From a virus (lineage: Duplodnaviria > Caudoviricetes), in the IMG/VR virus record IMGVR_UViG_3300037307_000569, positions 1 to 48,055 of that record: a DNA stretch of 48,055 bases. One strand, given 5' to 3'. This document shows positions 23,117 to 45,195 of the stretch, one piece after another. The notes beneath the pieces are model-generated. The model was not told the DNA's origin and made no database searches. It was given only the letters and a program-made list of their open reading frames with translations. Position 1 is the first letter of the stretch. Every line of letters begins with the position of its first letter. The translations under genes and the position numbers were made by a program.

Positions 23117-23585
23117 GCGGGACTGTCCCAGGCCCAGTCCACAGTTGCATTCAACTCTCACAAGTGTAATATACCCTGCCCTAACATGTCCTAACATCTT
23201 CTAACATGTCCCTAACAGCCTAACAGCCTGTTAGATTGTTAGACGCTTCTAACAATTGCATGCAATAAAAATTTGTGGTTACGATAAAAGGGGCTCCTTT
23301 TCTTCCAACCACAAATCCGATTGTTGCATGCACTAACAGTGTGATACTAACATGTTGTTAGAGATGTCTAACATGATATACTTGCGCATAACGTATTTGC
23401 GCCATATCAGGAAGGAAATGCATGCAATCGGGTATTTGGAGGGAAGCGCTAGAATGCGTTCTAAGCGCTTGGAGGGGCATTCTGGCATGCTGACAAGGGC
23501 GGGGATTCAACCCCTGTCCTTGGCGTTCTTAAGGCACAAAAAAGGCCAAGGGGAAACCCCTTGGCCATGGTGGTAGCGGGGGGAG

Positions 23586-23969
23586 TTATACCCCCACTTG
23601 CTCCGCTGCCAGTGGAGAGGGAATGAGCGGGGGCAAGGCGTTAGCCGCTTCCACTGCCATCGCGGCGAGAATCGGCCCTGCCACGCGCCAAGGGGCGGAA
23701 TGCGCGATGGTGATTTCCGCCCCCGTAGGGGAAAGAACGGTCTTCTTCTCTTTCAACTCCATCCACTTGGGACGGGTGACGGTTTTCTTCCCCTTTTGAA
23801 CCCGCTCTTCCCCAAGGGCGAGAAAGCGCCCCTCAGAGACGCGGAATTCCAAAACCACGTCCCGCGTGGCAGGGACATAGACCGCAACCTTGGCGTGGTA
23901 GGGGAAACGGATGTCGGAGCGCTTGGCCAAGGACAGGAAAACGGGAAGGGAAACGTAGGTGGTTTGCAT
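23586..23969 (-). CDS. Hypothetical early protein
   Basis: ORF from MQTTYV; terminator hairpin at about 23537-23567. Confidence 0.6.
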   Translation of the reverse strand: MQTTYVSLPVFLSLAKRSDIRFPYHAKVAVYVPATRDVVLEFRVSEGRFLALGEERVQKGKKTVTRPKWMELKEKKTVLSPTGAEITIAHSAPWRVAGPILAAMAVEAANALPPLIPSPLAAEQVGV

Positions 23970-24340
23970 GGCGTGGGGTGGCCTACTGGAATCGCACTCC
24001 CACAAAACGTCCCGAGCCAAACCAACGTGGCTTGGTTGTCGGGGTGGGGTGGCGGGAAGTAAGCACGCGCCCAAGATGGGGATTCACTGCATCTCGACAA
24101 GAAAAATCGCACCAATCACACAAAAAAGATTGTTTTTCTACCTTTCTGCATATGTCCATTGGACAGATGTGTAGGACACTCAATCACTAACAAACAGTTA
24201 GAAATGCCCTAACAATTGCATGCAATTGCGGGAATTGTGGTTACTACAAAAAGAGCCCACTTTCTTGTAACCTCAAAAATTGTTGCATGCATCAACTGTG
24301 TGATACAGCGTGCCAGACCATACGACCCCCCCTACCCCCC

Positions 24341-24427
24341 CTAACAGTTATTTGGCTCTAACAGTTAGATATTTGGGCCTAACAGTTAGAAACGGGGCTC
24401 TAACAGTTAGAAACGGCTAACAGTTAG
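24341..24427. repeat. Five CTAACAGTTA(G) palindromic iteron-like repeats
   Basis: Copies at 24341, 24358, 24379, 24400, 24417 (spacing 17/21/21/17). Confidence 0.85.
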
Positions 24428-24571
24428 ATAATGGGTTGTCTCACACTCCAATCTGAAAAGAAAAGAGCAACTCCTTTCGGAGTTGCCCTTTCCCCCCTTT
24501 GTGCCATGAAAAAACCTACAAAATCACGTAAAGCGCAACTAACGCCGCGAGCGTGAATGTGAGTTGCCAAA

Positions 24572-25054
24572 TCATGGCGTTTCCTCGCTTCCCACGCCAT
24601 TCACCGCTTCGATGTTTTCTACCTTGTGGCAAAGGTAGTCAGCAACTTCACCGTCACGCTTTTCCGAAGCAAGCAAGAAATCCTCAACTTCCGCATAGGA
24701 AACGGGTTTGCCGTCGAGAAAGAATTGCGAGCGGGCAGGGTTGCCACTCGGTTGGCCGAAAAGGTAAATCTGGCCATTGGTTTTGTGGCGACGAAATAGG
24801 TTGCGCCCGCCATCGACCTCGGGGCAGGGTTCATGCCAAAGCTGCTCGGGGGCAAGCTTTTCGCGCCCGTTCTCCCGTGCTTCGATTGTGCTGGCTTGGT
24901 TTTCGTAATTGTGGCCAAGCCGCATTTGCATTTGCGTCCGCTTGGTGACGGCAGGCGACCCTTTGCGCGTTTTGCACGGGCGATAGGAAATGACCGTGGC
25001 AATTGCCCCACGCTGACGAGTGCCAAGGACTTCGAATAGTTGAGTGGTTGTCAT
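24572..25054 (-). CDS. Hypothetical early protein
   Basis: Leaderless start MTTTQL after a TTGCCA...TACTTT promoter. Confidence 0.7.
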   Translation of the reverse strand: MTTTQLFEVLGTRQRGAIATVISYRPCKTRKGSPAVTKRTQMQMRLGHNYENQASTIEARENGREKLAPEQLWHEPCPEVDGGRNLFRRHKTNGQIYLFGQPSGNPARSQFFLDGKPVSYAEVEDFLLASEKRDGEVADYLCHKVENIEAVNGVGSEETP

Positions 25055-25265
25055 AACGGGGGGAAAGTAGCATCTCGCAAGGGGGATGGCAAGGGAAAAG
25101 GTTAAAAAAGATTTTTTCATTTTGTAATTGACAAACCCCTAACAGAATCGTCTAACAGCTCCCTAACAGCATCTAACAATTGCATGCAACAAAAAAATTG
25201 TGGTTAGCAGAAAGTGGGCGCTTTGTGAAGTAACCACAAAATTGCTTTTGTGGCTTTGTAATATA

Positions 25266-25706
25266 CTATAGTAGCCCCGCCTGTCTAAAGGAAAAGAACG
25301 TATTTGTATCATCTCCAATGATAACGTGATCGAGAAAGCGGATATTCATGATTGCGGACGCCTCATGAACGCGTTTCGTCAATTCCCTGTCGGCAGTACT
25401 CGGGGCAGGGTCGCCGCTTGGATGATTGTGAACCAAGATGAAACCGTGCGCACCGCCAACAATCACGGGACGCAAAATTTCCCTTGGGTGGGCGCACGTC
25501 TCGCTAACCGTACCAAGAGAAACAAGAAACCACGCCTTGGTTTTAATCCGAGACGTTGTAAGCAAAACGTGAAGGTGTTCTTGGGAATCCGCCATGGTGG
25601 GGCGGATTTGCGTTTGGTGATATTCGCAAACCAATTCGGAAGAATCAATTAGGGTTTGCTCTTCCCTGACTTTAGAAGAGAGCACGGGAACGATCTTGTA
25701 TTGCAT
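25266..25706 (-). CDS. RadC-like JAB/MPN domain protein
   Basis: QEHL, VSLGTVSETCAHPREI, HNHPSGDPAPSTAD, FLDHVIIG, FSFRQAGLL. Confidence 0.92.
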   Translation of the reverse strand: MQYKIVPVLSSKVREEQTLIDSSELVCEYHQTQIRPTMADSQEHLHVLLTTSRIKTKAWFLVSLGTVSETCAHPREILRPVIVGGAHGFILVHNHPSGDPAPSTADRELTKRVHEASAIMNIRFLDHVIIGDDTNTFFSFRQAGLL

Positions 25707-25745
25707 GGCGTACAAAGGCTAGGGGTTGCGTTAGGTGCGCTTGGA

Positions 25746-25964
25746 TCACGCTTTGCGGCGTGCTGTGCGGAGAATTTCCGCAGCGGCGTCTCGTTCAATC
25801 GAAACGCCACAAGGGAGACCTCTTCCCGCAATCGCTACCCGCATGGTTCTTCCGTGTCCGCGCGTGGTCAACAAGAGGAGCTTGCCGCTTTCGCTTTCGA
25901 TACGCGTATACATGAGGCATGCCACGGATGCCTTTTCCCGTTTGATGGTGTAGATCTTGGCCAT
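25746..25964 (-). CDS. Small hypothetical protein
   Basis: ATG start MAKIYTIKRE; located upstream of the RadC-like gene. Confidence 0.45.
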   Translation of the reverse strand: MAKIYTIKREKASVACLMYTRIESESGKLLLLTTRGHGRTMRVAIAGRGLPCGVSIERDAAAEILRTARRKA

Positions 25965-26187
25965 GTCCCGAGTCTGGCCTAACAAAAGCCTAACAACAAG
26001 AAAAAAAACAAGAATTTTTGTTGTATGCAATAACTTTTGTGGTTGCTCCAAAACGCATCCCCTCCCAGCCAACCACAAAATACTTTGTGATACACTCAGC
26101 TAGGGTGTCGCCGCTCCCCCGCGCCCGCGCTTATTTGCGATATTTTGTTCTTGACTTGTCCAAACGAGACGCTACCCTGCCCGCGTC

Positions 26188-26478
26188 ATGAGAACCTATG
26201 TTTACCTTGAATTGCCTGATGGTTTGGAGTACCAAGTCTTTGCCACGTTTTCCATCATTCCCGCACTCGTTTGCGTGGGCTGGATTGCGGATGGCGTGCG
26301 CAAGACGAAAGACGTTCAACAGGGCTGGGAAATCGATGGGGAAATCGAATTTGACAGTGTGGAGGTCACTTCTCCTAGTGGCTGGCAAGCGGTTCCCAAG
26401 GATGACCCGCGCTATCTGCAAGCTTGCGAAGCGTCCCGCCCGCTCTTCCAAGCCTACGTAGACAATTATCAAAAATAA
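26188..26478 (+). CDS. Hypothetical early protein
   Basis: Leaderless: TTGACT at 26151, ATG 37 nt later. Confidence 0.75.
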   Translation: MRTYVYLELPDGLEYQVFATFSIIPALVCVGWIADGVRKTKDVQQGWEIDGEIEFDSVEVTSPSGWQAVPKDDPRYLQACEASRPLFQAYVDNYQK

Positions 26479-26529
26479 GCGAAAAAAAAGCTTGCATTCC
26501 TCCCGCCAAGTTGCTACTTTCTCCGCGTC

Positions 26530-26859
26530 ATGAATACTCCATTTAGCCTTATCGATTTTGTCTACCTATTCGACATCTTTGGCGTGATTGGATCGCGCCT
26601 TACAGCGAACAGCATCGCGCTTGTCTGCGATGGCGGCAGCGTGACTGTATTCGAAGCACCAAACGGTGAATTCCAATTGAATGATTTGCCGCCAGCATCG
26701 CACCAAACGATCATTCTGGCAATCGCCAGTGTGCTCGGCCTTGACTTGGGGGCAGTCATGCAAGACTATCAACTCTTGTTTACGGAAGAACAGCCTCCAA
26801 TTTTCTCTTCCTACTACGGCGACTTGTGGAAACGCAAGCATGCCGAATGCGCAATTTGA
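26530..26859 (+). CDS. Hypothetical early protein
   Basis: Leaderless promoter TTGCAT...TACTTT; terminator follows. Confidence 0.7.
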   Translation: MNTPFSLIDFVYLFDIFGVIGSRLTANSIALVCDGGSVTVFEAPNGEFQLNDLPPASHQTIILAIASVLGLDLGAVMQDYQLLFTEEQPPIFSSYYGDLWKRKHAECAI

Positions 26860-27000
26860 CAATCGGCAATTGTCAGGGGGCGGCGAGTGTCGCCCCCGCT
26901 TTTTTGTAGTTACTTCGCAACGCATCCCCCCGCTGCCAACCTCAAAAAAACAAAGATTGTTCTTGACTTCACCCCTTCACTGCCCCACCTTTCCCGCGCC

Positions 27001-27408
27001 ATGAATGCACAAGCACTCGACCTATTCAACCTCGCCCTCGCCATGTCCGTCCTCGCCCGCGAGGATTCATTGGAAAAGCTCGCCCGCATGGAAGAGCCCT
27101 TTGGCCTCTCCCCTGACAAGCCGTGGCCGAATTTTAATCGCGAACGGCCTCACGACTGGTATATCAATCCCAACGGGTTGACTGTCCGCTTTCCAAGCGA
27201 CTCTGAGCCTTGGGATGATGGTTTGGACGATGACGAAATCGAAGAAGAGCGAATTCGCATCGAAAACGGCCCACAAGATGAGCCCGATTTGTCCGCACCC
27301 GAACCACGGGAGGACGATGACGAGTGGCAGGAAGAGCCCGATCCACGCGACCTTGAATATTGGACGCGAATGGAAGAATATAAGAAGGAAATGCGCGAAA
27401 ACCGCTAA
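27001..27408 (+). CDS. Highly acidic early protein
   Basis: Leaderless start at 27001; D/E-rich C-terminal half. Confidence 0.7.
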   Translation: MNAQALDLFNLALAMSVLAREDSLEKLARMEEPFGLSPDKPWPNFNRERPHDWYINPNGLTVRFPSDSEPWDDGLDDDEIEEERIRIENGPQDEPDLSAPEPREDDDEWQEEPDPRDLEYWTRMEEYKKEMRENR

Positions 27409-27519
27409 GCGCATGCAACACGGGAGGGGATGGCGCAAGCCATCCCTTTTTTTGTGGTTTGTTCGCAACGCATCCCCACTGAACCAACCACAATTTTTGT
27501 TTCATGCAACACGGTATCC

Positions 27520-27585
27520 TTAGTGGAGCGCTCCGAAATAAATGATTAGAAAGATACCAATAATGATAAGATTAATCCATGTCAT
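27520..27585 (-). CDS. 21-aa hydrophobic peptide (MTWINLIIIGIFLIIYFGALH)
   Basis: Own leaderless promoter (TTGACT...TAGGCT) directly upstream. Confidence 0.5.
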   Translation of the reverse strand: MTWINLIIIGIFLIIYFGALH

Positions 27586-27670
27586 ATTTACAGCCTAGCG
27601 GGTGAAATCTGCCAAGTCAATCCTTATTTAAATTGACAATGGCCAACCAGCATGCTCTATTTAGGGCGTC

Positions 27671-28006
27671 ATGAAAAACAAAACCACCGTTTCCGAAAGA
27701 ACGCGCATTGCACGCGCTTTGATGTGCTCTGATTTGCTTCGTGGCTTGGATCGCAACCAAAGCAAGCCAAGGGCGTTATGGGCTATCCACGAAGCGCTAA
27801 CCAAGTGTGGCTTCGTTCTCGATATGGTATCGGCTGACATTATCATGGGCGACAAGGGACAGCGCTGCCTGTCATTCTCGCGACAGGATGACCTGATCGA
27901 TGGAGACGGTGTGCGCATCGAAAACGCCGCGATTTGTTTTGTTTGGGAAAACTTGGCAGCAACCGTTGAGTCGCCACGCTGGGAATTCCTTGCTTATGTT
28001 TCCTGA
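27671..28006 (+). CDS. Hypothetical early protein
   Basis: Leaderless (TTGACA at 27633). Confidence 0.75.
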   Translation: MKNKTTVSERTRIARALMCSDLLRGLDRNQSKPRALWAIHEALTKCGFVLDMVSADIIMGDKGQRCLSFSRQDDLIDGDGVRIENAAICFVWENLAATVESPRWEFLAYVS

Positions 28007-28053
28007 AGATTGTCCTTGACTTTCCAAATTCAAACCACGAAGATTCCCGCGTC

Positions 28054-28180
28054 ATGAACACGTGATTTTTAACCCCACTAAGATTCGGGGTAGAAAGGAG
28101 GAAAGGAGGCCACCATGAAATTCTAACCACACAAAACCGCTAGTAAGTTGCGGGGGGCGGCAGTGCCGCCCCTCGTTTTG
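28054..28180 (+). ncRNA. Short transcript with two minigenes (MNT*, MKF*) and a tandem SD
   Basis: Promoter TTGACT at 28016; ATGAACACGTGA; AAAGGAGG x2 (28094-28109); ATGAAATTCTAA; GC terminator at 28152-28180. Confidence 0.55.
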
Positions 28181-28264
28181 TAGTTACTTCACAACGCATG
28201 CCCCCCAAAGAAACCTCAAAAATGTATTGACTTGCGAGGGGCAGGGGTTTAGAGTCCTTTCACC

Positions 28265-28522
28265 ATGAACAAAAAATTGATTGCCCTTCGAAAGGAAGTC
28301 GCCCTCGCCAAGCGTAGCTGGGAAAAGGCCAAGGATGCTGTGCGCGTTGAATTCCTTGTCGGAACGAATGACAGCTTGAACAAAGCGGTTCTTGACGCGG
28401 AGAACGCCAGCGAACGCTACTACACCAAGCGGCAGGAATACTTGGAGTTTGCCGCTGCTACTCCCGAACCGCCCGCCACGCAAGCGGACGATGGCGCGAT
28501 TGTGGTCGTGATCGTTTTCTAG
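28265..28522 (+). CDS. Hypothetical coiled-coil early protein
   Basis: Leaderless promoter; terminator follows. Confidence 0.75.
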   Translation: MNKKLIALRKEVALAKRSWEKAKDAVRVEFLVGTNDSLNKAVLDAENASERYYTKRQEYLEFAAATPEPPATQADDGAIVVVIVF

Positions 28523-28672
28523 GTTGGTTACATGACAAGGGCAGGGCGAGCGGGGAAACCCGCTCGCTTTGTCTTTTTTTGTGGTTACTTCCGAAAGCAT
28601 CCCTCCTAAGTTAACCACAAAATTCTTGTTTTTCTGGTTGACAACACCTCGCACGCATGATATTTCGGGGGC

Positions 28673-29065
28673 ATGAAATCGAAACGCATTTCTGTTCCTG
28701 TTGTCGCTGGCCTTTTTTCTGCGTTTGGCATAAACCATAACGTGTACTATTTCCCAGAAGATAAAGAAGACGGATCGCTTCCCTTTGTCTGCCGAACGGA
28801 TGCCCACACTTTGCTTGGCTGGCCACAAGAACGGGGGTTTAAGGCCATGGAGTTTTCCCGCCGCCCAATGAAAAACGCGGCTCGTGTCCATATCATACGC
28901 TTCCCGAATGGTAGCTTGTTTTGGAGCCTGCAACCATTTAACAACTCTTTTCGCCCATGGGACGCCCGCTGCCTGTATCCAAAGGCACAAGCTTTTCTGA
29001 GCGATCACGGACTTGCCCCAAAGCTTCCAAATTCGTCTTGCCAAGTCTGGTTTCGTGCTACTTAA
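28673..29065 (+). CDS. Hypothetical early protein
   Basis: Leaderless (TTGACA at 28638). Confidence 0.7.
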   Translation: MKSKRISVPVVAGLFSAFGINHNVYYFPEDKEDGSLPFVCRTDAHTLLGWPQERGFKAMEFSRRPMKNAARVHIIRFPNGSLFWSLQPFNNSFRPWDARCLYPKAQAFLSDHGLAPKLPNSSCQVWFRAT

Positions 29066-29147
29066 AGTAGCAAAAAACAAAGATTTGTAGTTAGGAGTTA
29101 ATGCATCCCCTCAGAAGCAACCACAAAATTTATTGCATGCTTTTGCT

Positions 29148-29289
29148 AGCCACGGGGGAGGGTCGAACTCCCATTTCGCTTACTTTGTCGGGCGTGGCAA
29201 ATGCCCCTAGACTTTGAAACTCCTTAATACGCTTTAGCCGTCACATATTAAGGCTCTTTCAGCGGTTTTACCGTTTAAACTACCGTAGC
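29148..29289 (-). ncRNA. tRNA-like RNA with anticodon loop replaced by a two-hairpin domain
   Basis: Acceptor GCTACGG/CCGTGGC, D arm GTTT-AAACGGT-AAAA, T arm GGGAG-TTCGACC-CTCCC; about 80-nt insert closed by CGCT/AGCG. Confidence 0.7.
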
Positions 29290-29295
29290 ATTTAT

Positions 29296-29361
29296 GATTG
29301 CGGAAAGGAGTTGAACCTTTAACTACCTTTAGAGCCGTTTTGCCGTTAAACTACCGCAATC
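29296..29361 (-). ncRNA. Minimal tRNA-like RNA with shortened anticodon arm
   Basis: GATTGCGG/CCGCAATC acceptor, D and T arms intact, only 16 nt between them. Confidence 0.65.
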
Positions 29362-29368
29362 TTCCCGA

Positions 29369-29632
29369 TCAGGAAACTTTGACAATCTCCCCATTTTCAG
29401 CGGTGCAAGCCGCATACCAGCGGTGCGGCTTGGGATAGTGCGGTCCCTCGACGGCAAACTTGCCATTGCGTGGCTCGTTGCCGCCAAACGGCCCAGGCTG
29501 GTAATAAGTCACGGGGCGAACGAAAGCGGTCGCCTCCCCTTCCCCACGTTCGCACGCGGCCAGATATTCCAAACGAGCGGCGACGGCTTCTTTCAGTTCC
29601 TTCTTTGTCTTGAAATTGCGGTTTGTATACAT
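29369..29632 (-). CDS. Hypothetical phage protein
   Basis: MYTNRNFKTKKELKEAV...YQPGPFG...EGPHYPKPHRWYA. Confidence 0.75.
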   Translation of the reverse strand: MYTNRNFKTKKELKEAVAARLEYLAACERGEGEATAFVRPVTYYQPGPFGGNEPRNGKFAVEGPHYPKPHRWYAACTAENGEIVKVS

Positions 29633-29767
29633 AGCTTTGCTTGGTTGACGCGGGAAGATTGGCATGGTCTCGGGGGCAAGTCAACAATAAAAAATAAAGA
29701 TTTTGAAGTTAGCTCGCAACGCATCCCCTTCAAAGCAACCACAAAAACGCTAAGCAAATCCTTGTTT

Positions 29768-30115
29768 TTAATTCCCACCAGCCTTTCGCAAACGCGAAAG
29801 AATGGTGATGGTGTTGCGGCGAGTTGTATACATCAAACGTTGCACTGACAGGAACTCATCACGCGATATTTCGTGATATACCGTCCGATCCCGCACCATG
29901 TAAACAGGTGTATCAAAATGCAGGATAAGCAAGTCGCCAACGGCAATCGGCCTTATTTGCAACTCTTGTAGTAAACGCGGGGTATGCTGGCACAGCGCAC
30001 CCTCTAGCAATGCCAAAAAATCGCTTATTTCTTGCGATGTCTGTGCGCTTGCCGAAATGCAGGGGATATTGAAGTTGAAGGTGATTTCCTTCGGGTAAAT
30101 GATTGTCGCTTGCAT
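29768..30115 (-). CDS. Hypothetical early protein
   Basis: Leaderless-type promoter 37 nt upstream. Confidence 0.6.
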   Translation of the reverse strand: MQATIIYPKEITFNFNIPCISASAQTSQEISDFLALLEGALCQHTPRLLQELQIRPIAVGDLLILHFDTPVYMVRDRTVYHEISRDEFLSVQRLMYTTRRNTITILSRLRKAGGN

Positions 30116-30207
30116 GCCTCCCATATACCAAAAAACTTAGAACAAAGTCAATAAAAAAATGTTGAAATCTTATTGACATGGCCAGCCAATCCGCTATGCT
30201 CCGCGCT

Positions 30208-30285
30208 ATGAGTTTGTCAAAAATCATAGTCGAAGCGCTTTTCGTGGCGCTTTCGCTGCTACTTCTAACCATAATCCTATCATGA
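30208..30285 (+). CDS. 25-aa hydrophobic peptide
   Basis: Leaderless MSLSKIIVEALFVALSLLLLTIILS; ATGA overlap with next gene. Confidence 0.5.
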   Translation: MSLSKIIVEALFVALSLLLLTIILS

Positions 30286-30482
30286 ACACAACGGTCATCA
30301 AATGCACTTGCACCCATTCCTTCCAAAACAAGCGCTATGGGGCGGGTATGCGCCTTCACAATGACGACAGCAAGGGAGGATTTACTTGCACCGTCTGCGG
30401 AAACAGCAAGGCAAAATCGAGCAAACCAGCGGACGCTGCGGATGCTGAAACCAAGCCAGCAAAGAAAAAAGCCAAAAAATAG
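30282..30482 (+). CDS. Small Cys/His zinc-binding protein with basic tail
   Basis: CTCTH...CTVCG motifs; Lys-rich C-terminus. Confidence 0.7.
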   Translation: MNTTVIKCTCTHSFQNKRYGAGMRLHNDDSKGGFTCTVCGNSKAKSSKPADAADAETKPAKKKAKK

Positions 30483-37797: not shown

Positions 37798-37800
37798 TAC

Positions 37801-37876
37801 GGGAGCGTAGTTTAGAAGGGAAAAATTCCTCAGTGACATTGAGGGGAACTCGGTTCGATCCCGAGCGCACCTACCA
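37801..37876 (+). tRNA. tRNA-Val(GAC)
   Basis: CCTCA-GTGACAT-TGAGG; CCA. Confidence 0.85.
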
Positions 37877-37879
37877 AAT

Positions 37880-37966
37880 GGGCGGCGTATGAGATGAAGT
37901 GGTTCTGAAAAATAGGCACCGCGCCCCACAAAAAGCATCAATAATTACGAGGTATCCCGCCCACCA
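37880..37966 (+). ncRNA. CCA-ended RNA with acceptor-like stem but no D/T arms
   Basis: GGGCGG...CCGCCC-A-CCA between two tRNAs. Confidence 0.5.
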
Positions 37967-37969
37967 TTT

Positions 37970-38044
37970 CCCCCTGTCTTTCAACGGATAGGAACGCCGC
38001 CTTCTAAGCGGATAATAGGGGTTCAATTCCTCTCGGGGGGACCA
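37970..38044 (+). tRNA. tRNA-Arg(TCT)
   Basis: Cloverleaf, CCA. Confidence 0.9.
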
Positions 38045-38087
38045 TTTTCCTCTTGACATTGATAAGAAAAAAATATAATCTCGCGCC

Positions 38088-38306
38088 ATGAGAAAAAACT
38101 TCTACAAACACACCTACACGGTTGTTGTATTAAGCGAAGATAAGGAAGAATGCGGACTTGACTATTTAGCTAGTTCCGTCAATACTGGGCCTGACTGTTT
38201 GTTTTCATACGGTATTACTAAAACAGAAAAGCTCTCTAAAAAACAAGCTGCTGACGCTCTTTATGAAGCGGGTTCTGACCCAGCATTTTTCGGTATTTCC
38301 TCTTGA
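38088..38306 (+). CDS. Small hypothetical protein
   Basis: Leaderless TTGACA...TATAAT promoter. Confidence 0.75.
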   Translation: MRKNFYKHTYTVVVLSEDKEECGLDYLASSVNTGPDCLFSYGITKTEKLSKKQAADALYEAGSDPAFFGISS

Positions 38307-38336
38307 CATTATCTGAAAAACCCATAAGCTCCTCCT

Positions 38337-38660
38337 ATGAAAAGAATCCTGAGTCAACCACAGCAAACCACGGATTTCGTTCTTGTTTCTGACCTGAAAC
38401 CAAGCATTGAATTCCAATATATCGGCTTGTCTTTGCCTGACGGCACAAGGGGAATACTGCGAGAAGATTGCAGCAATAGCTTACACATGTTCCAAGAGGC
38501 TTGGGATAATGAAATCGTTCAAACACATCTTGATTCCCTCAAGTTAACCCTACCAGAAATGGTAAAAAGGCTGGAAGAAAACAACATTGTGGTTTTTTCG
38601 TTCGAATCGCTCCGTGAATTGTTGCGCTGGGTCAGCAACGGTTCCGATGTAATATTTTAG
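38337..38660 (+). CDS. Hypothetical protein
   Basis: Leaderless (TTGACA at 38303). Confidence 0.7.
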   Translation: MKRILSQPQQTTDFVLVSDLKPSIEFQYIGLSLPDGTRGILREDCSNSLHMFQEAWDNEIVQTHLDSLKLTLPEMVKRLEENNIVVFSFESLRELLRWVSNGSDVIF

Positions 38661-38734
38661 GTCTGCAAGCATAGACAGCGATGCGCGTGTCTCGTAAGCA
38701 TGAAAGGTCAGTGCAAGTCTGACGCGGGCCTCCA
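38660..38734 (+). tRNA. tRNA-Thr(CGT)
   Basis: Cloverleaf, CCA. Confidence 0.88.
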
Positions 38735-38753
38735 GAAAACAAAAGCTTTCAAT

Positions 38754-38844
38754 GTGTCGGCTGCAATGACGGCGGTATTGCGGATGGCTGTAGACCATCT
38801 CCCACAGGGTAAACAAGAGAGTTCGAATCCCTCCCGACACACCA
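38754..38844 (+). tRNA. tRNA-Tyr(GTA)
   Basis: Long variable arm, CCA. Confidence 0.88.
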
Positions 38845-38845
38845 T

Positions 38846-38920
38846 GGTCTCAAAGAATAGACGGCGATTCACACGCTTGGTATGCGTGTCAGCAGGGTTC
38901 AAGTCCCTGTGAGACCTCCA
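38846..38920 (+). tRNA. tRNA-Thr(GGT)
   Basis: Cloverleaf, CCA. Confidence 0.9.
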
Positions 38921-38922
38921 GT

Positions 38923-38997
38923 GGGGAGTTGGTGTAGCGGTAAGCATCACAGGCTGTGAACCTGTCGGGGCGGGTTCAAATCCCGCACTTCCCTCCA
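38923..38997 (+). tRNA. tRNA-His(GTG)
   Basis: ACAGG-CTGTGAA-CCTGT; CCA. Confidence 0.88.
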
Positions 38998-39018
38998 TTT
39001 TTGCGTGTAAACAAGGAC

Positions 39019-39213
39019 ATGCCAATACCATCGAAAAGAAAAAACGAAAAGAAGAGTGATTTCCTATCTCGCTGCATGGGCGACGAAACGATGAACAAGG
39101 AGTTCCCCGATCAGAAACAACGCTATGCGGTATGCAATACCAAATGGGCGAAGAAGAAAGAAAAAGCTTCTGTCACAGCTTCTGTTGGTGAAGAGGAAAT
39201 CATCGTTGAATAG
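39019..39213 (+). CDS. Small basic protein (probable late gene inside the tRNA cluster)
   Basis: MPIPSKRKNEKKSDFLSRCM...QRYAVC; GTGTAA 8 nt upstream. Confidence 0.75.
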   Translation: MPIPSKRKNEKKSDFLSRCMGDETMNKEFPDQKQRYAVCNTKWAKKKEKASVTASVGEEEIIVE

Positions 39214-39215
39214 AT

Positions 39216-39294
39216 AGCGGTGTCATATAACGGTTTATTATGTGTGGCTTTGAACCACAACATGGTCTGGGTTCAATTCCCCCCGCCGCTGCCA
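39216..39294 (+). tRNA. tRNA-Gln(TTG)
   Basis: TGTGG-CTTTGAA-CCACA; CCA. Confidence 0.85.
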
Positions 39295-39349
39295 AAATTT
39301 CTCAAGAAACTTGTTGACTTCCTTCGGGATTCAGCTATAAAGACCTCGT

Positions 39350-39404
39350 GCGACACATACAGCAATCAAAAATACTCGTATTATATAACGAAAAAAGGTG
39401 TCGC
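39350..39404 (+). ncRNA. WUACAGCAA-motif RNA, copy 2
   Basis: GCGACAC-ATACAGCAA...GTGTCGC, immediately after a TTGACT/TATAAA promoter. Confidence 0.6.
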
Positions 39405-39410
39405 GTATTA

Positions 39411-39484
39411 GCCCGATGAGTGTGATGATAGCACGTAACGCTACGGACGTTAAAGAAGGGGTTTAATTCCTCTATCGGGCACCA
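39411..39484 (+). tRNA. tRNA-Arg(ACG)
   Basis: TAACG-CTACGGA-CGTTA; CCA. Confidence 0.88.
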
Positions 39485-39486
39485 CA

Positions 39487-39545
39487 AAGACGCTTACAGC
39501 AAACCAAAAAAATTCAGAATCTAATCCGAAAAAAAACGGCGTCTT
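39487..39545 (+). ncRNA. WUACAGCAA-motif RNA, copy 3
   Basis: AAGACGC-TTACAGCAA...GCGTCTT. Confidence 0.6.
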
Positions 39546-39555
39546 GTCCCTTTTT

Positions 39556-39649
39556 GCTGCATGGGTGGTGATTGGTAAACCACAACTGGCTTTCAACCAG
39601 TAGGCTTTCAAAAGAAGTTTGGCGGGTTCGATTCCCGTATGCAGCACCA
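39556..39649 (+). tRNA. tRNA-Glu(TTC) with long variable arm
   Basis: ACTGG-CTTTCAA-CCAGT then GGCTT-TCAAAAG-AAGTT arm; CCA. Confidence 0.82.
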
Positions 39650-39651
39650 AT

Positions 39652-39770
39652 CCCCAGTTCGTCTAAAGTAAGACAGTCTTCCGACCGCTTGTCGCCTCCT
39701 TTCACACGTTGGTCTGTGTGCAAGCTCCAAAGAAGAAAAATGGATGTGTTGCGGCATTCACTGGGGGCCA
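39652..39770 (+). ncRNA. tRNA-Trp-like RNA with 43-nt structured insert in the anticodon arm
   Basis: CCCCAGT/ACTGGGG-G-CCA, D arm GTCT/AGAC, TCTTC-[39682-39724]-CTCCAAA-GAAGA. Confidence 0.7.
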
Positions 39771-39778
39771 ATTTCAAT

Positions 39779-40183
39779 GGGCCTGCGTAGTTTCGACATG
39801 ACAAATCGAAATTACCATGCATGCAGAGGTTGATCGAAGGGCCTCTATAAAAATCGATTGAAAACCAAACGGCAAGTTCAACAAGCTTGCGTCCTTCGCG
39901 AAGAAGGCGGCGACCATGTTCAGTTTCGCGACTGTCAAGATCACTGTGCCTGCCTACGCGTAAGCAAAACGCACAGGAATCCCTCTCATCTGTGCGGACC
40001 AAACGAGGGTGGTTGTTGGGCTCGACCGCAACCGTAAAGCAAATCGGGTCATGGTGGTATTTCACCAAACAGAGAGCCGCGTCACCAGCGCACCCAACTG
40101 TGAGGAAAATCGGTGAAAGCATGTAATTCATGATAATTAAGTTAGTCATGGACATCGGGAGCATCACCCGATCAGGTCCACCA
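39779..40183 (+). ncRNA. ssrA: tmRNA
   Basis: GGGCCTG...TTCGAC 5' end, GCATG helix, GAC...CAGGTCCACCA 3' end with G3:U; tag ORF 39871-39963 ends in PAYA*. Confidence 0.92.
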
Positions 40184-40185
40184 AA

Positions 40186-40259
40186 TCTCCTTTGACGTAA
40201 CGGTAGCGTATCTGACTCTTAATCAGACTGTCCGAGTTCAAATCTCGGAGGGAGAACCA
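40186..40259 (+). tRNA. tRNA-Lys(CTT)
   Basis: TCTGA-CTCTTAA-TCAGA; CCA. Confidence 0.9.
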
Positions 40260-40302
40260 TTTTCCTCTTGACATTGGCGATAAATCCGCTTATCTTTCGC
40301 GC

Positions 40303-40479
40303 ATGAAGAAGAAAGCGCAGATGGGTGATTACGTGGAAGTAACCCACAAACCAAATGATCTGTTCAACCATGATTTTGTTGGTTTCGTCCAGAGCATCCG
40401 CAATGGAAATCCTGTTGTGGTTGATGGAAAGGATAATGCATGGGAAGTCGATCCCGATCAAGTGGAAGTAATCGAATAA
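40303..40479 (+). CDS. 58-aa hypothetical protein (not in ORF track)
   Basis: Leaderless MKKKAQMGDYVEV...VDPDQVEVIE*. Confidence 0.7.
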   Translation: MKKKAQMGDYVEVTHKPNDLFNHDFVGFVQSIRNGNPVVVDGKDNAWEVDPDQVEVIE

Positions 40480-40569
40480 TTTCCGTGTTGACGCGAAGAG
40501 TGCGATGATCATTACCCCTGCTTCGATCAGGTAGCGATTCAATCTGGGTTCGCGTCAACACAAAAAATA

Positions 40570-40645
40570 CGGAGCGTGGTAGAACAGCTATACGCCTGCC
40601 TGCAAAGCAGGGCCGATGCGGGTGCGAATCCCGCCGCTTCGTCCA
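40570..40645 (+). tRNA. tRNA-Cys(GCA)
   Basis: CCTGC-CTGCAAA-GCAGG; U73; CCA. Confidence 0.9.
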
Positions 40646-40646
40646 A

Positions 40647-40721
40647 GGGATCATGGTGTAGTGGTAGCAACACTGGCCTGTCACGTCAGAGGAAGGGGTT
40701 CAATTCCCCTTGGTCCCGCCA
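40647..40721 (+). tRNA. tRNA-Asp(GTC)
   Basis: CTGGC-CTGTCAC-GTCAG; G73; CCA. Confidence 0.9.
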
Positions 40722-40764
40722 CTTTTTTCTTGACTCTTAAAACTTTTCCGACATAATGCCGCAC

Positions 40765-40944
40765 ATGAACCAGAACACGGTCTATATCAAATACGAAGGA
40801 AAACATGAGCCTTGCTATCGATCCATCCTTGGCCTTTTAAATCTCGGGCCTCCTATCGATGAAGATTCGGGAGAGGATTTGGAAGTTTCGGACGATTTCT
40901 TATACAAAAAAGTTAATGGAGAATTTGTTCGATTACAGTCATAA
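40765..40944 (+). CDS. Small hypothetical protein
   Basis: Leaderless TTGACT...CATAAT promoter. Confidence 0.65.
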   Translation: MNQNTVYIKYEGKHEPCYRSILGLLNLGPPIDEDSGEDLEVSDDFLYKKVNGEFVRLQS

Positions 40945-41005
40945 AGGCCATTACAAAGCACTATAATTGGTTGACAAACCCCCAGCATCAAAGTAAGGTT
41001 GTTTC

Positions 41006-41209
41006 ATGAATACACCACTACAAAATGCCATTCTCGACGTTTCGGAAGTCTTCACTGGAAGCAACGGGGGTATGGACTACATTAAATTCCGCCGAATGAT
41101 TGAGTCGCTCGAAACAAAAGCTCTCAACGGAGATGCAGCTTCGAAAGAGATTCTTCTTATTGTGGAACGTTTCTGTAAACTAGTAGAACTTTCGAAAACA
41201 AAAGGTTGA
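41006..41209 (+). CDS. Small hypothetical protein
   Basis: Leaderless; stop codon lies inside the next tRNA's acceptor stem. Confidence 0.7.
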   Translation: MNTPLQNAILDVSEVFTGSNGGMDYIKFRRMIESLETKALNGDAASKEILLIVERFCKLVELSKTKG

Positions 41210-41291
41210 CAAACCCCTAGAGTCGGGGCACCGTCTGGAAAGCGGTTGGAGGTGTAAAAGCCTTGGGATGCAAGTTCTCTGTCAACCGCCA
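41204..41291 (+). tRNA. tRNA-Ser(GGA)
   Basis: GGTTGAC/GTCAACC, long variable arm, G73, CCA. Confidence 0.82.
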
Positions 41292-41313
41292 TATAAAAAC
41301 TAAAGTTTTTACT

Positions 41314-41401
41314 GGATGATTAACCCGCGAGGTGCGGGCGCTGCCTGCTAAGCAGACGGAGGTTCAACAGCCTTGGCGTTCAAGTCGTCAGTCATCCGCC
41401 A
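41314..41401 (+). tRNA. tRNA-Ser(GCT)
   Basis: Long variable arm, CCA. Confidence 0.87.
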
Positions 41402-41404
41402 ACA

Positions 41405-41494
41405 GGAAGGATGCCAGAGCGGTTGATTGGGTCAGTCTTGAAAATTGAAGGGGTATAAAAGCCTCCGTGGGTTCGAATCCCACTTCTTCCTCCA
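41405..41494 (+). tRNA. tRNA-Ser(TGA)
   Basis: Canonical class II tRNA, CCA. Confidence 0.92.
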
Positions 41495-41497
41495 AAT

Positions 41498-41573
41498 GCG
41501 CTAATGATGTTAACGGCCAGCATACCGTCCTTCCAAGTCGGGTGTGGGGGTTCGAATCCCCCTTGGCGCACCA
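41498..41573 (+). tRNA. tRNA-Gly(TCC)
   Basis: Cloverleaf, CCA. Confidence 0.9.
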
Positions 41574-41615
41574 TTTTCCTCTTGACAAACGCTCTTAATC
41601 TCATAGAATCCCGCC

Positions 41616-42137
41616 ATGACTCCGTGCAAAACACTCGTTAGTGACAGGGACCGCATTCCTGTATCTGAGGAATTCATCAAGCGCAACAACCTTCGCTTGC
41701 TATCGGAAGACGACATTGCAAGGTTTTTAGACAATAGAGATGACATCTTTGGATTTGAAGCGGGCGTTCTAACCATGTTCCTGCCTTGGGAAAAGATTAA
41801 ACATTTGTATAAGGAAGATTTTGTGAAGCAGGTCGATGCTGGAACTGAAGATTTCCCGCCGCCAATTACCTCAATCGAAGAAGCGGCACAAGACTTTCTT
41901 GATTACATGGTGTTTGCATGGGACAAAGCAGAAAGCCAACGTGGAATTTCTGCATCACGCAGTATCTCAAAGCTTTTCGCTTGGCTGTCTGTTATGGGGC
42001 GTAAGGATTTAGCCGATATCCTTAATAAAAATGAATTGTATAACCCATACGGCGCACCCGCATTGATTGCCGTGTGTGACGCAATGGGAATTAAGGTGCC
42101 CAAATCTCTCAAGAAATTTGCCGAACATCCTTGTTAA
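41616..42137 (+). CDS. Hypothetical phage protein
   Basis: Leaderless; DYMVFAWDKAESQRGISASRS...YNPYGAPAL. Confidence 0.8.
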   Translation: MTPCKTLVSDRDRIPVSEEFIKRNNLRLLSEDDIARFLDNRDDIFGFEAGVLTMFLPWEKIKHLYKEDFVKQVDAGTEDFPPPITSIEEAAQDFLDYMVFAWDKAESQRGISASRSISKLFAWLSVMGRKDLADILNKNELYNPYGAPALIAVCDAMGIKVPKSLKKFAEHPC

Positions 42138-42212
42138 GGTCTGTAAGCATTGACGGCGATGCGCCAGTTTTGTAATCTGGATAAGTCGGTTCGACTCCGA
42201 CACGGGCCTCCA
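42138..42212 (+). tRNA. tRNA-Thr(TGT)
   Basis: Cloverleaf, CCA. Confidence 0.9.
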
Positions 42213-42272
42213 TTAACTCTTTTTCCCCAAAATAAATCTTGACTCTGGCGCAAAATCCCCCATACTCCTCGT

Positions 42273-42344
42273 ATGAAGATCATTGATCCGCTTGCCGTCA
42301 CCAACTTCAATCGATCCGATGCAGAACTCCAAGCATGGCGTTAA
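42273..42344 (+). pseudogene. 23-codon ORF, possible truncated gene remnant
   Basis: Good leaderless promoter but only MKIIDPLAVTNFNRSDAELQAWR*. Confidence 0.4.
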
Positions 42345-42424
42345 ACCAAATAGATCTTTTGATTTGGGCAACCCAAAGCGACAGAATTGAAGGCACGTTC
42401 AACGACTCCTTTCCACCACAAAAT

Positions 42425-42516
42425 GGATTATAGGGTGCCCGTGTTGGCACGCCCGCTCTCGAAAAGCGGCCCAACCCCTAAAAAGGTTGACGGTTCGACT
42501 CCGTTATAATCCTCCA
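42425..42516 (+). tRNA. tRNA-Ser(CGA)
   Basis: CCGCT-CTCGAAA-AGCGG, long variable arm, CCA. Confidence 0.85.
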
Positions 42517-42523
42517 CAAAAAA

Positions 42524-42775
42524 ATGACTCGCATTAAACATATCATTAGTTGCGCAGACTCCCCCAATCTGTTGTTTGCGTTAGTTCTTAGCATTCCTTT
42601 TCTTCTCGGTTTTGCTTGGGGCTACTTCTTCGGGCACGTAAACGGAGTAAACAACACAATGATTGAAGCGTGGCAGCAAGGTGTCGCTGTCCCTACTCTC
42701 GAAAAAGGCGAAATCAAATACCGTTGGGTTGATCCACATTTATTGGAAGAAATTCCGCCACCACTACCAGAATAA
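42524..42775 (+). CDS. Small membrane protein (paralog 1)
   Basis: TM helix then GYFFGHVNG...GVAVP...KYRW. Confidence 0.7.
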   Translation: MTRIKHIISCADSPNLLFALVLSIPFLLGFAWGYFFGHVNGVNNTMIEAWQQGVAVPTLEKGEIKYRWVDPHLLEEIPPPLPE

Positions 42776-42777
42776 CT

Positions 42778-42978
42778 ATGAAAAACCATGACATGTTTTT
42801 GTTGATTATGGGCGCAGCAGTCCTATTAGCCGTCATTTTCTTTTTCGGCTACGTCCTTGGTTGGCAAAACGGAATTACCGCAACAAAAATTGACGCGTTC
42901 AAACACGGTGTTGCCGTGCCGCAAGTCGTGAATGATCAAGTCAAGTACAATTGGATCAATCCACCCCCTTCAAGGTAG
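42778..42978 (+). CDS. Small membrane protein (paralog 2)
   Basis: TM helix then GYVLGWQNG...GVAVP...KYNW. Confidence 0.7.
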   Translation: MKNHDMFLLIMGAAVLLAVIFFFGYVLGWQNGITATKIDAFKHGVAVPQVVNDQVKYNWINPPPSR

Positions 42979-43061
42979 CGTGCGCAGAATCAGGTTAATG
43001 CACCCGACTCATAATCGGAGGGGGTAATTCCCAACTGTGGGTTCGAATCCCACCGCTACCA
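42974..43061 (+). tRNA. tRNA-Met/Ile2 (CAT) with long variable arm
   Basis: CCGA-CTCATAA-TCGG, GGGG-TAAT-TCCC arm, canonical T arm. Confidence 0.82.
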
Positions 43062-43128
43062 CTTTTTTAAAGAAAACTATTGACAACCACCCATTTACCT
43101 GCCAAACTATCGCCAACAAAGGAACTTT

Positions 43129-43479
43129 ATGGGCTACACTCATTACTTCGAACAAATCGGGCAAGCGCCTACTGATCAACAATGGGAACAAATTGTCGCA
43201 GAGACCCAGCAAATCTTGCACAAATACAAGAAAATTGTTTGTTTTGAAGACGACCAACCAGACTTGCCGCCACAAGTAGACGAAAGAATCATCCGCTTCA
43301 ACGGAAAAAATGGTTTGGGCTATGAAACGTTTTTTCTCGACCGTTTTCAAAGGGGATTTGAGTTTTGCAAAACCGCTCGCAAACCATATGACGCGCCTGT
43401 TGTGGAAGTCTTGAAAGTTGTGAAAAAAATCGCTCCCACATGGCTCAAATTATCAAGCGACGGAGACGTTTTTGATTGA
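43129..43479 (+). CDS. Hypothetical phage protein
   Basis: MGYTHY...IRFNG...ETF...FCKTARKPYD...SSDG. Confidence 0.8.
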   Translation: MGYTHYFEQIGQAPTDQQWEQIVAETQQILHKYKKIVCFEDDQPDLPPQVDERIIRFNGKNGLGYETFFLDRFQRGFEFCKTARKPYDAPVVEVLKVVKKIAPTWLKLSSDGDVFD

Positions 43480-43509
43480 CAGGCACCAGACTCTTGCTAT
43501 ACTACGCCC

Positions 43510-43767
43510 ATGAAACGTGAAGGTTCCACCAAAGCCACATGCCGCCCCAACAACTACGCAAAACCAGTCAAGCCGAATCGGTTTGCGGGCCAACGCAAGG
43601 GGTTGATCGAAAGTCTGCGTAATGCCAAGACCGTTGCACAAGTTGACAAGCTGATTTCTGTCGCCAAGGAATACGAGTTCCTTTCAAAAGACACCGCCCG
43701 CAAAGCAAACAAAATCGCCACAAGCGTCCGCAATTCCCTTGTGGTAAAACAAAACAAGAAGTCGTGA
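43510..43767 (+). CDS. Small basic hypothetical protein
   Basis: Leaderless TTGACA...TATACT promoter. Confidence 0.7.
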   Translation: MKREGSTKATCRPNNYAKPVKPNRFAGQRKGLIESLRNAKTVAQVDKLISVAKEYEFLSKDTARKANKIATSVRNSLVVKQNKKS

Positions 43768-44273
43768 GCAAGATCATCCAAGGAAACATTTTCGATGGGG
43801 TATGGGACGTGATGATGCACGTTGCCAACTGCTATCACACTATGGGAGGAGGAATTGCCAGAGAAATTGCCAAACGCTTTCCCGAGGTTTATGCGGCAGA
43901 CAAGGAGACGGTTGACGATGAAACCAAACTTGGACATTATTCTTTCGCGGAAATTCCAGGTAAAAGAGTCGTCTATAACCTATACGCGCAAACAGGTATC
44001 GGAAACAACGGAGACCCCTTGAAAAGAAACTTGCGCTATGATTCCTTTTTCGACTCGTTGTTTCGCGTTTTCCGATTAGAGTGTTCGCACGCTGCTGCAA
44101 CAAAAAAAGAAACGCTAACCATTGCATTGCCATATGGAATCGGCTGTGGTTTGGCAGGAGGCAATTGGGAAATTGCCAAAAAAATCATTGACGAAGTGGA
44201 AAAAGCTGCTAAAAAGGGTCTTGTAAAGTGCAAACTCAACGTCCATATCTACAGACTTTACCCATTCAAATGA
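43764..44273 (+). CDS. Macrodomain (ADP-ribose binding/hydrolase) protein
   Basis: IIQGNIF, HVANCYHTMGGGIAREI, NLYAQ, PYGIGCGLAGGNW. Confidence 0.9.
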   Translation: MSKIIQGNIFDGVWDVMMHVANCYHTMGGGIAREIAKRFPEVYAADKETVDDETKLGHYSFAEIPGKRVVYNLYAQTGIGNNGDPLKRNLRYDSFFDSLFRVFRLECSHAAATKKETLTIALPYGIGCGLAGGNWEIAKKIIDEVEKAAKKGLVKCKLNVHIYRLYPFK

Positions 44274-44518
44274 ATAAGAAAACCAAACATGCCCGCGCCA
44301 AAGGGTTCGCCTCTCAAAAAGACCTGTTGCACAACGGCAACAAGGTCTACAAGGGCCTCTGCTGTGACACGGCTTGGAATGCTCCTGGATCAAAGCACAA
44401 AAACCGCAAGCAATACAAGCGGAACAAAGACCGTGAATTCTTTGCCAAACAAAAGCCAACAGTCGTTGATCTGATCACGTTTGAAGGCGAAACCGAATTT
44501 CTACCAAGTGAGGGTTAA
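44270..44518 (+). CDS. Small basic hypothetical protein
   Basis: ATGA overlap; HKNRKQYKR. Confidence 0.55.
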   Translation: MNKKTKHARAKGFASQKDLLHNGNKVYKGLCCDTAWNAPGSKHKNRKQYKRNKDREFFAKQKPTVVDLITFEGETEFLPSEG

Positions 44519-45152
44519 CACACGAATTTTAAGCAGAGACCGCAAACTGTTTGTTGCGGTTAGTGGCGGGATGGACAGCGTTGCCGCAGCCCATTGGTTG
44601 CGCAATAACTTCAGGCGCGATTTCAAGATCGTTCATATCAACCACGGGACAAACCCAGAATATAACGGGGCATGCGAATATAAAGTGTCCTTGCTGGCCC
44701 AATTTTTGGATGTTTCTTTAGAAATCTACAAGGGCACTTCCTTGCCAAACGCCACAGAAGATAATTTGCGGACATTAAGACTGCGAGGATTCGTCAGAGT
44801 ATGTCCGTCAGACTCTCTGATTGTAACAGCGCACCATCTGGATGACGCAGTGGAAAGCTATCTGATGAATGTCTTGCGAGGACGCGGAGAAGAAATGCCG
44901 ATCTCCGACAAGACGGAATTTGGACAATTCACAATCGCCCACCCGTTCGCCTACTCGGTCACGCGTGACGACTTTGCACAGCACATCGAAGAAAACAATC
45001 TGCATTGCTTTGTAGAGGAAGATCCTTCAAACGAGTCAGAAAAACCTTTAAGGAATTTTGTAAGGCATGTGCTGGTTGCGGAACTCAACAACCGCAAGGA
45101 TGTTTGTTTGAGGAGTATCGTGCGGGACAAATGGGGTTGGAGCGGGAAATAA
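44508..45152 (+). CDS. tilS: TilS-like tRNA(Ile)-lysidine synthetase (PP-loop domain only)
   Basis: VAVSGGMDS, HINHG, TAHHLDDAVESYLMN, EDPSN, RNFVR. Confidence 0.82.
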   Translation: MRVNTRILSRDRKLFVAVSGGMDSVAAAHWLRNNFRRDFKIVHINHGTNPEYNGACEYKVSLLAQFLDVSLEIYKGTSLPNATEDNLRTLRLRGFVRVCPSDSLIVTAHHLDDAVESYLMNVLRGRGEEMPISDKTEFGQFTIAHPFAYSVTRDDFAQHIEENNLHCFVEEDPSNESEKPLRNFVRHVLVAELNNRKDVCLRSIVRDKWGWSGK

Positions 45153-45153
45153 A

Positions 45154-45195
45154 TTGAGGTTAGATCAAAAGGTGCCCGCTCCCTTCCAACTACAA
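45154..45195 (+). repeat. 14th copy of the 42-bp element
   Basis: TTGAGGTT-N26-AACTACAA between convergent genes, followed by TTGCATCCAA. Confidence 0.8.

Follow-up and report, generated by a model that had tools for sequence, protein, structure and literature searches.

What do fourteen copies of a rigid 42-bp element do between the early genes of a phage? The question is raised by the viral record IMGVR_UViG_3300037307_000569 (Duplodnaviria; Caudoviricetes), a 48-kb fragment of a large uncultured freshwater phage, which was analysed here as a complete record of 48,055 nucleotides (hereafter the window). A preliminary description had offered two answers, namely that the elements are recombination sites of an integron-like system that shuffles gene cassettes, or that they serve for directional protein loading on the first-injected DNA. 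We examine both proposals together with further alternatives. The elements have a defined position and a fixed geometry, are built of independent half-sites, possess recurring flanks, and occupy a slot that is common to them and to other repeat types. We lean towards the explanation that they are docking platforms at the junctions of early transcription units, the genes between them being exchanged by ordinary homologous recombination.

Results and Discussion

The motif is found fourteen times in the window, at exactly the coordinates first reported, compared to a mean of 0.01 and a maximum of one in 100 shuffles. The plan of the element is a rigid 8-26-8 with mirror-symmetric arms; among the spacers of 0–60 bp tested, 26 bp is the sole length that occurs, and a profile scan of the window gives no fifteenth copy, the next-best site scoring −1.5 bits versus 44–57 bits for the elements. 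The central dinucleotide is AT in seven copies, GC in six and AC in one, and the first spacings are 962 and 963 bp. These points of the preliminary description are thus reproduced.

When both halves of all copies are folded together, the half-site profile reads TTG-W-R-GTT at positions −21 to −14. TTG and GTT, as well as a G at −3 and a purine at −1, are present in 28/28 half-sites, whereas the neighbouring spacer positions carry just 0.2–1.1 bits; the spacers diverge widely while the arms, G(−3) and the spacing stay invariant. Each half-site fits one consensus independently. The arms are mismatched in six of the 14 elements, with compensating changes in none of the variants, and arm-to-arm folding fails in five. 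Neighbouring copies have like cores, and seven consecutive copies have the AT centre, while the reassortment of left and right halves among the window elements is uninformative (Mantel r 0.12, p 0.15). Outside the arms, 11 of the 29 TTGCATGCAA-like sites lie 32–36 bp off an element centre (0.14 expected), at nine of the 14 elements. The full unit is up to about 78 bp long and comprises as many as five sites at intervals of about 17 bp.

One part of the original picture has to be revised. The copies were said to point all in the same direction, but leave-one-out scoring of the spacers places 12 of them on the plus strand, the one at 25198 on the minus strand (24.4 vs −0.2), and the one at 23273 on neither (10.2 vs 10.1). 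The elements at 24235 and 25198 form an inverted pair that is 86% complementary.

We now consider the local setting. All elements are intergenic, as had been stated, given promoter-proximal ATG starts (25964, 27001); the mechanical list of open reading frames (ORFs) overlaps some of them via upstream TTG/GTG starts or antisense frames. Element 1 (23273..23314, unstranded) has a nearly symmetric spacer and TTGCATGCAA flanks at −33 and +35, and element 2 (24235..24276, +) has such flanks at −35 and +32. Element 3 (25198..25239, −), reversed relative to the others, has one at −34, with TTGACA-N17-TCTAACAG ahead of it at 25128, and element 4 (26037..26078, +), with divergent genes on either side, opens the run of AT centres. 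Element 5 (26904..26945, +) stands behind a terminator-like hairpin at 26876–26897, with an outward TTGAC 17 bp on; element 6 (27452..27493, +) behind a hairpin at 27422–27451, with a TTGCATGCAA flank at +32; element 7 (28178..28219, +) behind one at 28150–28176, with TTGAC 7 bp on; and element 8 (28579..28620, +) behind one at 28537–28576, with TTGAC 17 bp on. Element 9 (29085..29126, +) has a TTGCATGCAA flank at +32, and element 10 (29703..29744, +) a left-facing TTGAC 18 bp away. Element 11 (30855..30896, +), the copy with the AC centre, lies ahead of a DUF932 gene and has a TTGCATGCAA flank at +34, and element 12 (31855..31896, +) lies 3′ of this gene and its hairpin, with a flank at +36. 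Element 13 (34046..34087, +) has convergent stop codons on either side and a promoter-free vicinity. Element 14 (45154..45195, +), with a TTGCATGCAA flank at +34, has convergent genes on either side and closes the block of early and transfer RNA (tRNA) genes at its far end.

Taken over the whole array, scanned terminators directly precede four elements, outward TTGAC sites are found near seven (7, 17, 17, 18, 59, 72 and 139 bp away), and convergent stop codons flank two, with no promoter near either. The element is not a general promoter part, because 16 [CG]TTGAC[AT] sites at 35–45 kb have no element nearby. The earlier estimate that most intervals hold one to three units stands in outline, with a wider range: read by eye, about 11 of the 13 hold one to four units, a further one has some six genes, and in one of 11 kb there are 28 tRNAs.

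The TTGACA-N17-TCTAACAG sequence, at 25128–25160 in the window, deserves a separate remark. It is directed towards the module and combines a perfect −35 with a non-standard −10, and it also occurs at junctions of L023 and G002 (seven sites in G002, six in L023, one in the window).

We next compare the window with its relatives, which were gathered via the DUF932 gene and comprise 80 loci in 56 groups. A RuvB-like query returned zero loci. The records selected by terminase have the same order of PhoH, early block and RuvB-like gene. The arms of the window are found in none of the 56 groups. Instead, 43 of these were scored by script as paired palindromes around a GC core (the common type), with an inner spacing of 25 in 36 groups, 33 in three, 23 in two and 26 in two. 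The remaining 13, classified by inspection, consist of three variants of the common type, one repeat-free group and nine groups with six further types. Taken together, at least seven other types with an arm/GC-core/arm plan occupy equivalent junctions in the relatives. A polar C-rich core is common to most types, and in locus L164 a GCATGC core is surrounded by CTAACAG arrays reminiscent of the flanks in the window. In four long records, the palindromes among the matches listed lie within the early block of 10–11 kb, with one outlier (13 matches are outside those listed). An inward TTGACA often stands 74–78 bp off centre in the common-type modules of relatives. The IHF consensus, WATCAANNNNTTR, is present exactly in 8/9 and 8/11 common-type modules, in 0/14 window elements and in none of four other types; at one mismatch, it is found in 5/14 window elements compared to a background of 13.5%.

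Elsewhere, the 42-mer pattern gives single scattered matches, at 17 loci in viral contigs and eight in metagenomes, and 185,579 genomes contain 22 scattered singles with no taxon cluster and no host array, in collections from which the nearest records to the window may be missing. The exception is locus L010 (G005) at 4090–10040, from an apparently unrelated phage with no protein match to the window, in which the same TTGTAGTT half-site as in the window occurs dozens of times between early genes, enclosing GC-rich spacers that differ in length. In G031:C1, a junction palindrome recurs at 16761 (L254, about 6750–6790) as a 35-nt copy, at a distance of 11 kb from the array and in frame within a coding gene made of tandem repeats; it may be an ectopic copy or an assembly error.

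The junction types are exchanged between close relatives. Identical DUF932 proteins occur in loci with different types: of the common type, there are 22 half-sites in L215 and none in L219, while of the L219 type there are 15 in L219 and none in L215, and L162 has 11 half-sites of the CTAACAG type and none of the common type, while L163 has 21 of the common type and none of the CTAACAG type. Genes common to such type-mismatched phages are 85–98% identical and partly reordered. At one junction, the gene end and the next promoter are kept and the terminator tail and the module are swapped out. Order changes, read by eye, fall between modules in 4/4 cases for L162/L163 and in 4/6 for L215/L219. 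In the relatives, as distinct from the window phage itself, gene gain, loss and reordering are bounded by junctions. The view that the elements partition the region is in this sense confirmed, as they bound gene cassettes, and the relatives reorder cassettes between equivalent elements. Genes accordingly move, whereas each genome keeps to one junction type, with one exception. That the type-mismatched pairs are near-identical strains is true of some of them: both flanks are close in G029/G036 (92% and 97%) and L162/G037 (83% and 95%), but G027/G028 are only about 70% identical in DNA on the terminase side.

Do these exchanges require a dedicated enzyme? If the elements were attachment (att) sites at which an enzyme of the serine or integron-like kind cut out and rearranged cassettes, a 42-bp dyad with outer arms, an R|Y centre and a G that is invariant at ±3 would suit them, as would the seven consecutive AT centres and the reordering between modules in relatives. 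However, we consider this very improbable. No recombinase had been seen in the window, and none is present among its 82 (PHROGs) and 66 (Pfam) ORFs. The profiles PF07508, PF00589 and PF00239 gave 0/15, 0/15 and 0/10 in other records, of which five are at least 90% complete and one of the 15, G005, is a non-relative. G001 has no recombinase and no transposase among 179/191 ORFs and encodes RecA, a RuvB-like protein and PD-(D/E)XK. In favour of the enzyme, the rest of the window phage's genome lies outside the 48-kb fragment, so that the search covered the fragment and other records.

The geometry also speaks against att sites. Integron attC sites fold as a single-strand hairpin with paired arms. 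This is not what we find here, as five of the 14 elements are unpaired arm-to-arm and the arm changes are uncompensated; a tyrosine integrase of the IntI type (PF00589) is absent from the 15 records and from the 48-kb window. The even spacer gives the window a two-base centre on the dyad axis, but the spacer is odd in 41 of the 43 common-type groups. For serine integrases, the outer motif is placed at 16–24 in attP and 11–19 in attB (PMC3783163), whereas the outer arms here are at 14–21 in 28/28 half-sites, with no 5-bp shift between two site classes.

Nor do the breakpoints fall where strand exchange would place them. Among 125 distinct ends of homology blocks, which stem from 18 of 34 same-type loci, with non-independent pairs and another type than that of the window, 0/125 are within 20 bp of a module centre and 15/125 within 70 bp, compared to 11.0 expected. 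Some pairs break at module edges (L127/L130). Six module pairs have no step in left/right identity at the centre, and cassettes pass between non-homologous junction types. Contigs of three runs show no joint at any element, which is a weak test as contigs lose rare forms. A contig joint at 26019–25106 was dismissed, being a 24-bp low-complexity match away from the elements. With no recombinase family found, a single half-site geometry, odd spacers in relatives and off-centre breaks, the integron-like proposal was not upheld.

We now turn to the position of the array in the genome. The mean depths in run X1 are 13.5 for a 27.1-kb contig that begins at 24349 and 6.1–8.4 for four contigs at 6.6–20.4 kb, with no contig placed at 20350–24349; the 1.7-fold ratio corresponds to 16–24 kb at double depth, where depth is one mean per contig. 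Because of this difference (13.5 vs about 8), the element region is likely a long terminal repeat and therefore first-injected DNA. The probable repeat, with the early cassettes and tRNAs, spans 22200..45200 (no strand assigned), with approximate limits of 22.2–24.3 kb on the left and 41–48 kb on the right.

Next to its left limit there is a single-copy boundary motif (22060..22215, +) with G/C runs, a purine tract and AAATTGA..CCCCCCC, which would be a candidate genome-end signal. In relatives, the boundary of the early region towards PhoH is marked, at about 15 distinct loci (for example L126:5770–5860, L182:145–230 and L237:6377–6460), by a motif present in a single copy, which consists of A-R-ATTGA, a run of C, some 35 bp and TTTT(C/G)AGAAATGGGGGG; the window copy has its two halves in swapped order. 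This edge motif is a candidate genome-end or packaging signal. Close to where the early block begins on the left, there are short tandem arrays at 23052–23116 and 24341–24435 (a 10-bp unit and a 21-bp CTAACAG unit), and 24349 is the start of the X1 contig. Another option considered was that the two DUF932 copies in G001 (L112–L119, 147.7 kb) represent a terminal repeat. This was ruled out by self-comparison, which reveals two strains joined via a common stretch of 4.7 kb, and the 100% completeness of this record needs caution.

On the basis of these results, we propose the following for the docking of a protein at the junctions. A dimeric DNA-binding protein would dock on the dyad of each junction in double-stranded DNA, because each half fits the consensus alone and the arm mismatches are uncompensated. 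The bound complex, bent or wrapped, would span as many as five sites spaced by some 17 bp and would separate a terminator from the next promoter, thereby insulating adjacent units; a role at boundaries is suggested because the elements follow a terminator or stop codon and precede the next promoter, or sit between convergent genes. Genes with their own promoters would be exchanged via RecA-type recombination in the flanks, with no site-specific recombinase involved, and foreign junctions would be purged or converted under selection for a single junction type per genome.

Several points weigh against this proposal. No binding protein was found for the elements, and no gene family followed the junction type among the compared relatives. 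The window type is without the IHF consensus, so that one protein would not explain all types, and the insulating role is a prediction from sequence. Three of the seven outward TTGAC sites are 17–18 bp from an element, which is an operator-like fit. L229/L020 mixes types in adjoining blocks (21 half-sites plus four of another), so the uniformity is not absolute. The breakpoint tests drew on relatives of another type and not on diverged strains of the window phage, and the terminal repeat is suggested by per-contig mean depths from a run that is possibly the source of the window.

Possible, though rather unlikely, is a lineage-specific junction “dialect” that is stamped on the first-injected terminal repeat and read by a matching protein, while accessory genes flow freely; if true, this would amount to a self-marking of incoming DNA, in the service of its entry, its protection or exclusion, for which eight or more codes could be used interchangeably. 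We regard as unlikely that the elements are loading or anchoring sites on the entering DNA, acting as a ratchet, in protection or in staged injection independently of transcription. The probable location in a terminal repeat, the confinement to the early block, the spacing of about 0.4–1.2 kb, the two promoter-less copies and the polar C-rich core across types would all fit, and in T5-like phages the injection stop contains repeats together with protein sites, described as functionally untested (PMC10644984). However, the 11-kb stretch of the same block is element-free, and the orientation is not strict in the window, L219 also having both orientations. Of the protein-loading idea in the preliminary description, the location and the binding of a protein thus remain plausible, while the strict directionality fails at 25198.

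An ordinary operator or activator site that switches the adjacent early promoter is less probable still. The elements are palindromic and lie upstream of sigma70-type promoters, three of them at 17–18 bp from TTGAC, many modules of relatives have the inward TTGACA at 74–78 bp off centre, and the region contains an ORF with AT-hook and helix-turn-helix (HTH)-like features, which scores under the 0.9 bar of the tool. Against this, the distances to TTGAC vary from 7 to 139 bp, two copies are promoter-less, 16 similar promoter sites have no element, and the same promoter stands behind different types. Finally, repeats of a near-neutral or selfish kind, kept alike from junction to junction through gene conversion and ectopic recombination, would account for the whole-array differences between close relatives, for the like cores of neighbouring copies and for the palindrome in the coding repeat of G031, if this is not an assembly error. 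We give this little credence, as the arms, G(−3) and the spacing are invariant despite the divergent spacers, no copies occur in the abundant intergenic DNA of the tRNA block or in the remainder of the complete genomes, and G001 is without a transposase. T5 nick sites, Chi and KOPS were also considered and set aside, as their spacing or sequence is not a consistent fit. The same holds for the G-tract operators of CsoR/RcnR (PMC3902906).

The remaining contents of the window are summarised here. It encodes terminase, portal, sigma factor, PhoH, ribonucleotide reductase and RuvB-like proteins, 28 tRNAs and a transfer-messenger RNA (tmRNA). The cassette cargo includes a RadC-like JAB gene (25266..25649, −) and a SprT-like gene (30519..30851, +). 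The DUF932 gene (31011..31811, +), our anchor for finding relatives, has a product with no solved structure related by sequence and a predicted model with a pLDDT (predicted local distance difference test) of 71. The ORF with the AT-hook-like motif RGRGRP and the HTH-like features (33073..33366, +; model pLDDT 49) is a candidate binder and a lead only. It is followed by a GP88-family gene (34356..34982, −) and by the element-free stretch at 35338..43062 (+), with the 28 tRNA genes, the tmRNA and small promoter-gene units, which serves as an internal control. The tmRNA, at 39779–40183 (+) inside the tRNA cluster (Rfam 55.9 bits), is unmatched among cultured phages. The tRNA block ends just ahead of element 14 with a macrodomain gene (43764–44273, +) and a PP-loop TilS-like gene (44481–45152, +). 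The cassette between elements 9 and 10 includes, at 29296–29360 (−), a gene that resembles a tRNA but has a short anticodon arm; it scores 43.4 bits with Rfam and was missed by ARAGORN, and a second T-arm-like hairpin is found near 29156–29172. The ribonucleotide reductase (18695–21997, −) contains a LAGLIDADG domain at residues of about 503–586, likely an intein, and a cobalamin adenosyltransferase gene is located nearby.

Repeats between early genes are usually taken as promoters that also seed shuffling, whereas in this array the repeat is distinct from the promoter and does not mark the crossover point. The element is under tight selection, yet the entire set is replaced between phages with nearly identical neighbouring genes, and the type-exchange pairs are natural swap experiments, with the same gene and promoter at a different boundary. 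A matching protein, if it exists, would show a private scaffold that is kept in a freely exchanged gene pool, and would bear on the role of dispersed protein sites on first-entering DNA, a question that T5 still poses. Should their role be confined to the insulation of transcription, the sites would be a tidy variant of the promoter-early stem-loop (PeSL) arrays discussed below.

Comparison with Known Systems

No published description of the 42-bp element was found in a partial literature search of main texts. Several known systems resemble it in part. The halovirus HF2 likewise has repeats between early units, but these are the promoters themselves (PMC8707807). In T5, repeats and protein sites are placed in the first-injected terminal repeat, but the signal is one non-coding region and not dispersed (PMC10644984). 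The 17-bp dyads of Cluster O mycobacteriophages have invariant inverted arms and a spacer that is constant in length but variable and weakly polar in sequence, their function being given as unknown (PMC4351075); their spacer is 3 bp and they are spread genome-wide, about one third inside genes, while ours is 26 bp and the elements are intergenic and confined to the early block. The attP/attB sites of large serine integrases (PMC3783163) are alike in length, outer arms and conserved bases next to a two-base centre, but here there is no P/B offset, no enzyme found and no crossover at the centre. Within the relatives, the common-type palindrome modules with the IHF consensus take the same slot between the PhoH and RuvB-like genes, with the arm/GC-core/arm plan and a spacing that is fixed per genome; the window differs in its arms, in having 0/14 exact consensus matches, in its even 26-bp spacer and in its TTGCATGCAA flanks.

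A further parallel is offered by the PeSL cassettes of T4-type phages. There, the small variable genes of a hyperplastic region are bordered by junctions of a terminator and an early promoter; the gain, loss and movement of these genes involve no dedicated recombinase, and mini-circles have been demonstrated (PMC2839356 and PMC4122927). The window shares the succession of terminator and early promoter at small-gene junctions, seen at four terminators and seven outward TTGAC sites, with two convergent exceptions. In PeSL, however, the homology is the terminator-promoter itself, whereas here a separate dyad of fixed geometry lies between the two. Moreover, the junction type differs wholesale between relatives in the clade of the window, and block ends are not enriched at the modules. 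The phage is also not of the T4 type, the best terminase matches being 23–27% to phiCD211, c-st and YonF types, and a relative has a tape-measure gene. By analogy, the element array would thus work like a PeSL array, but is not one.

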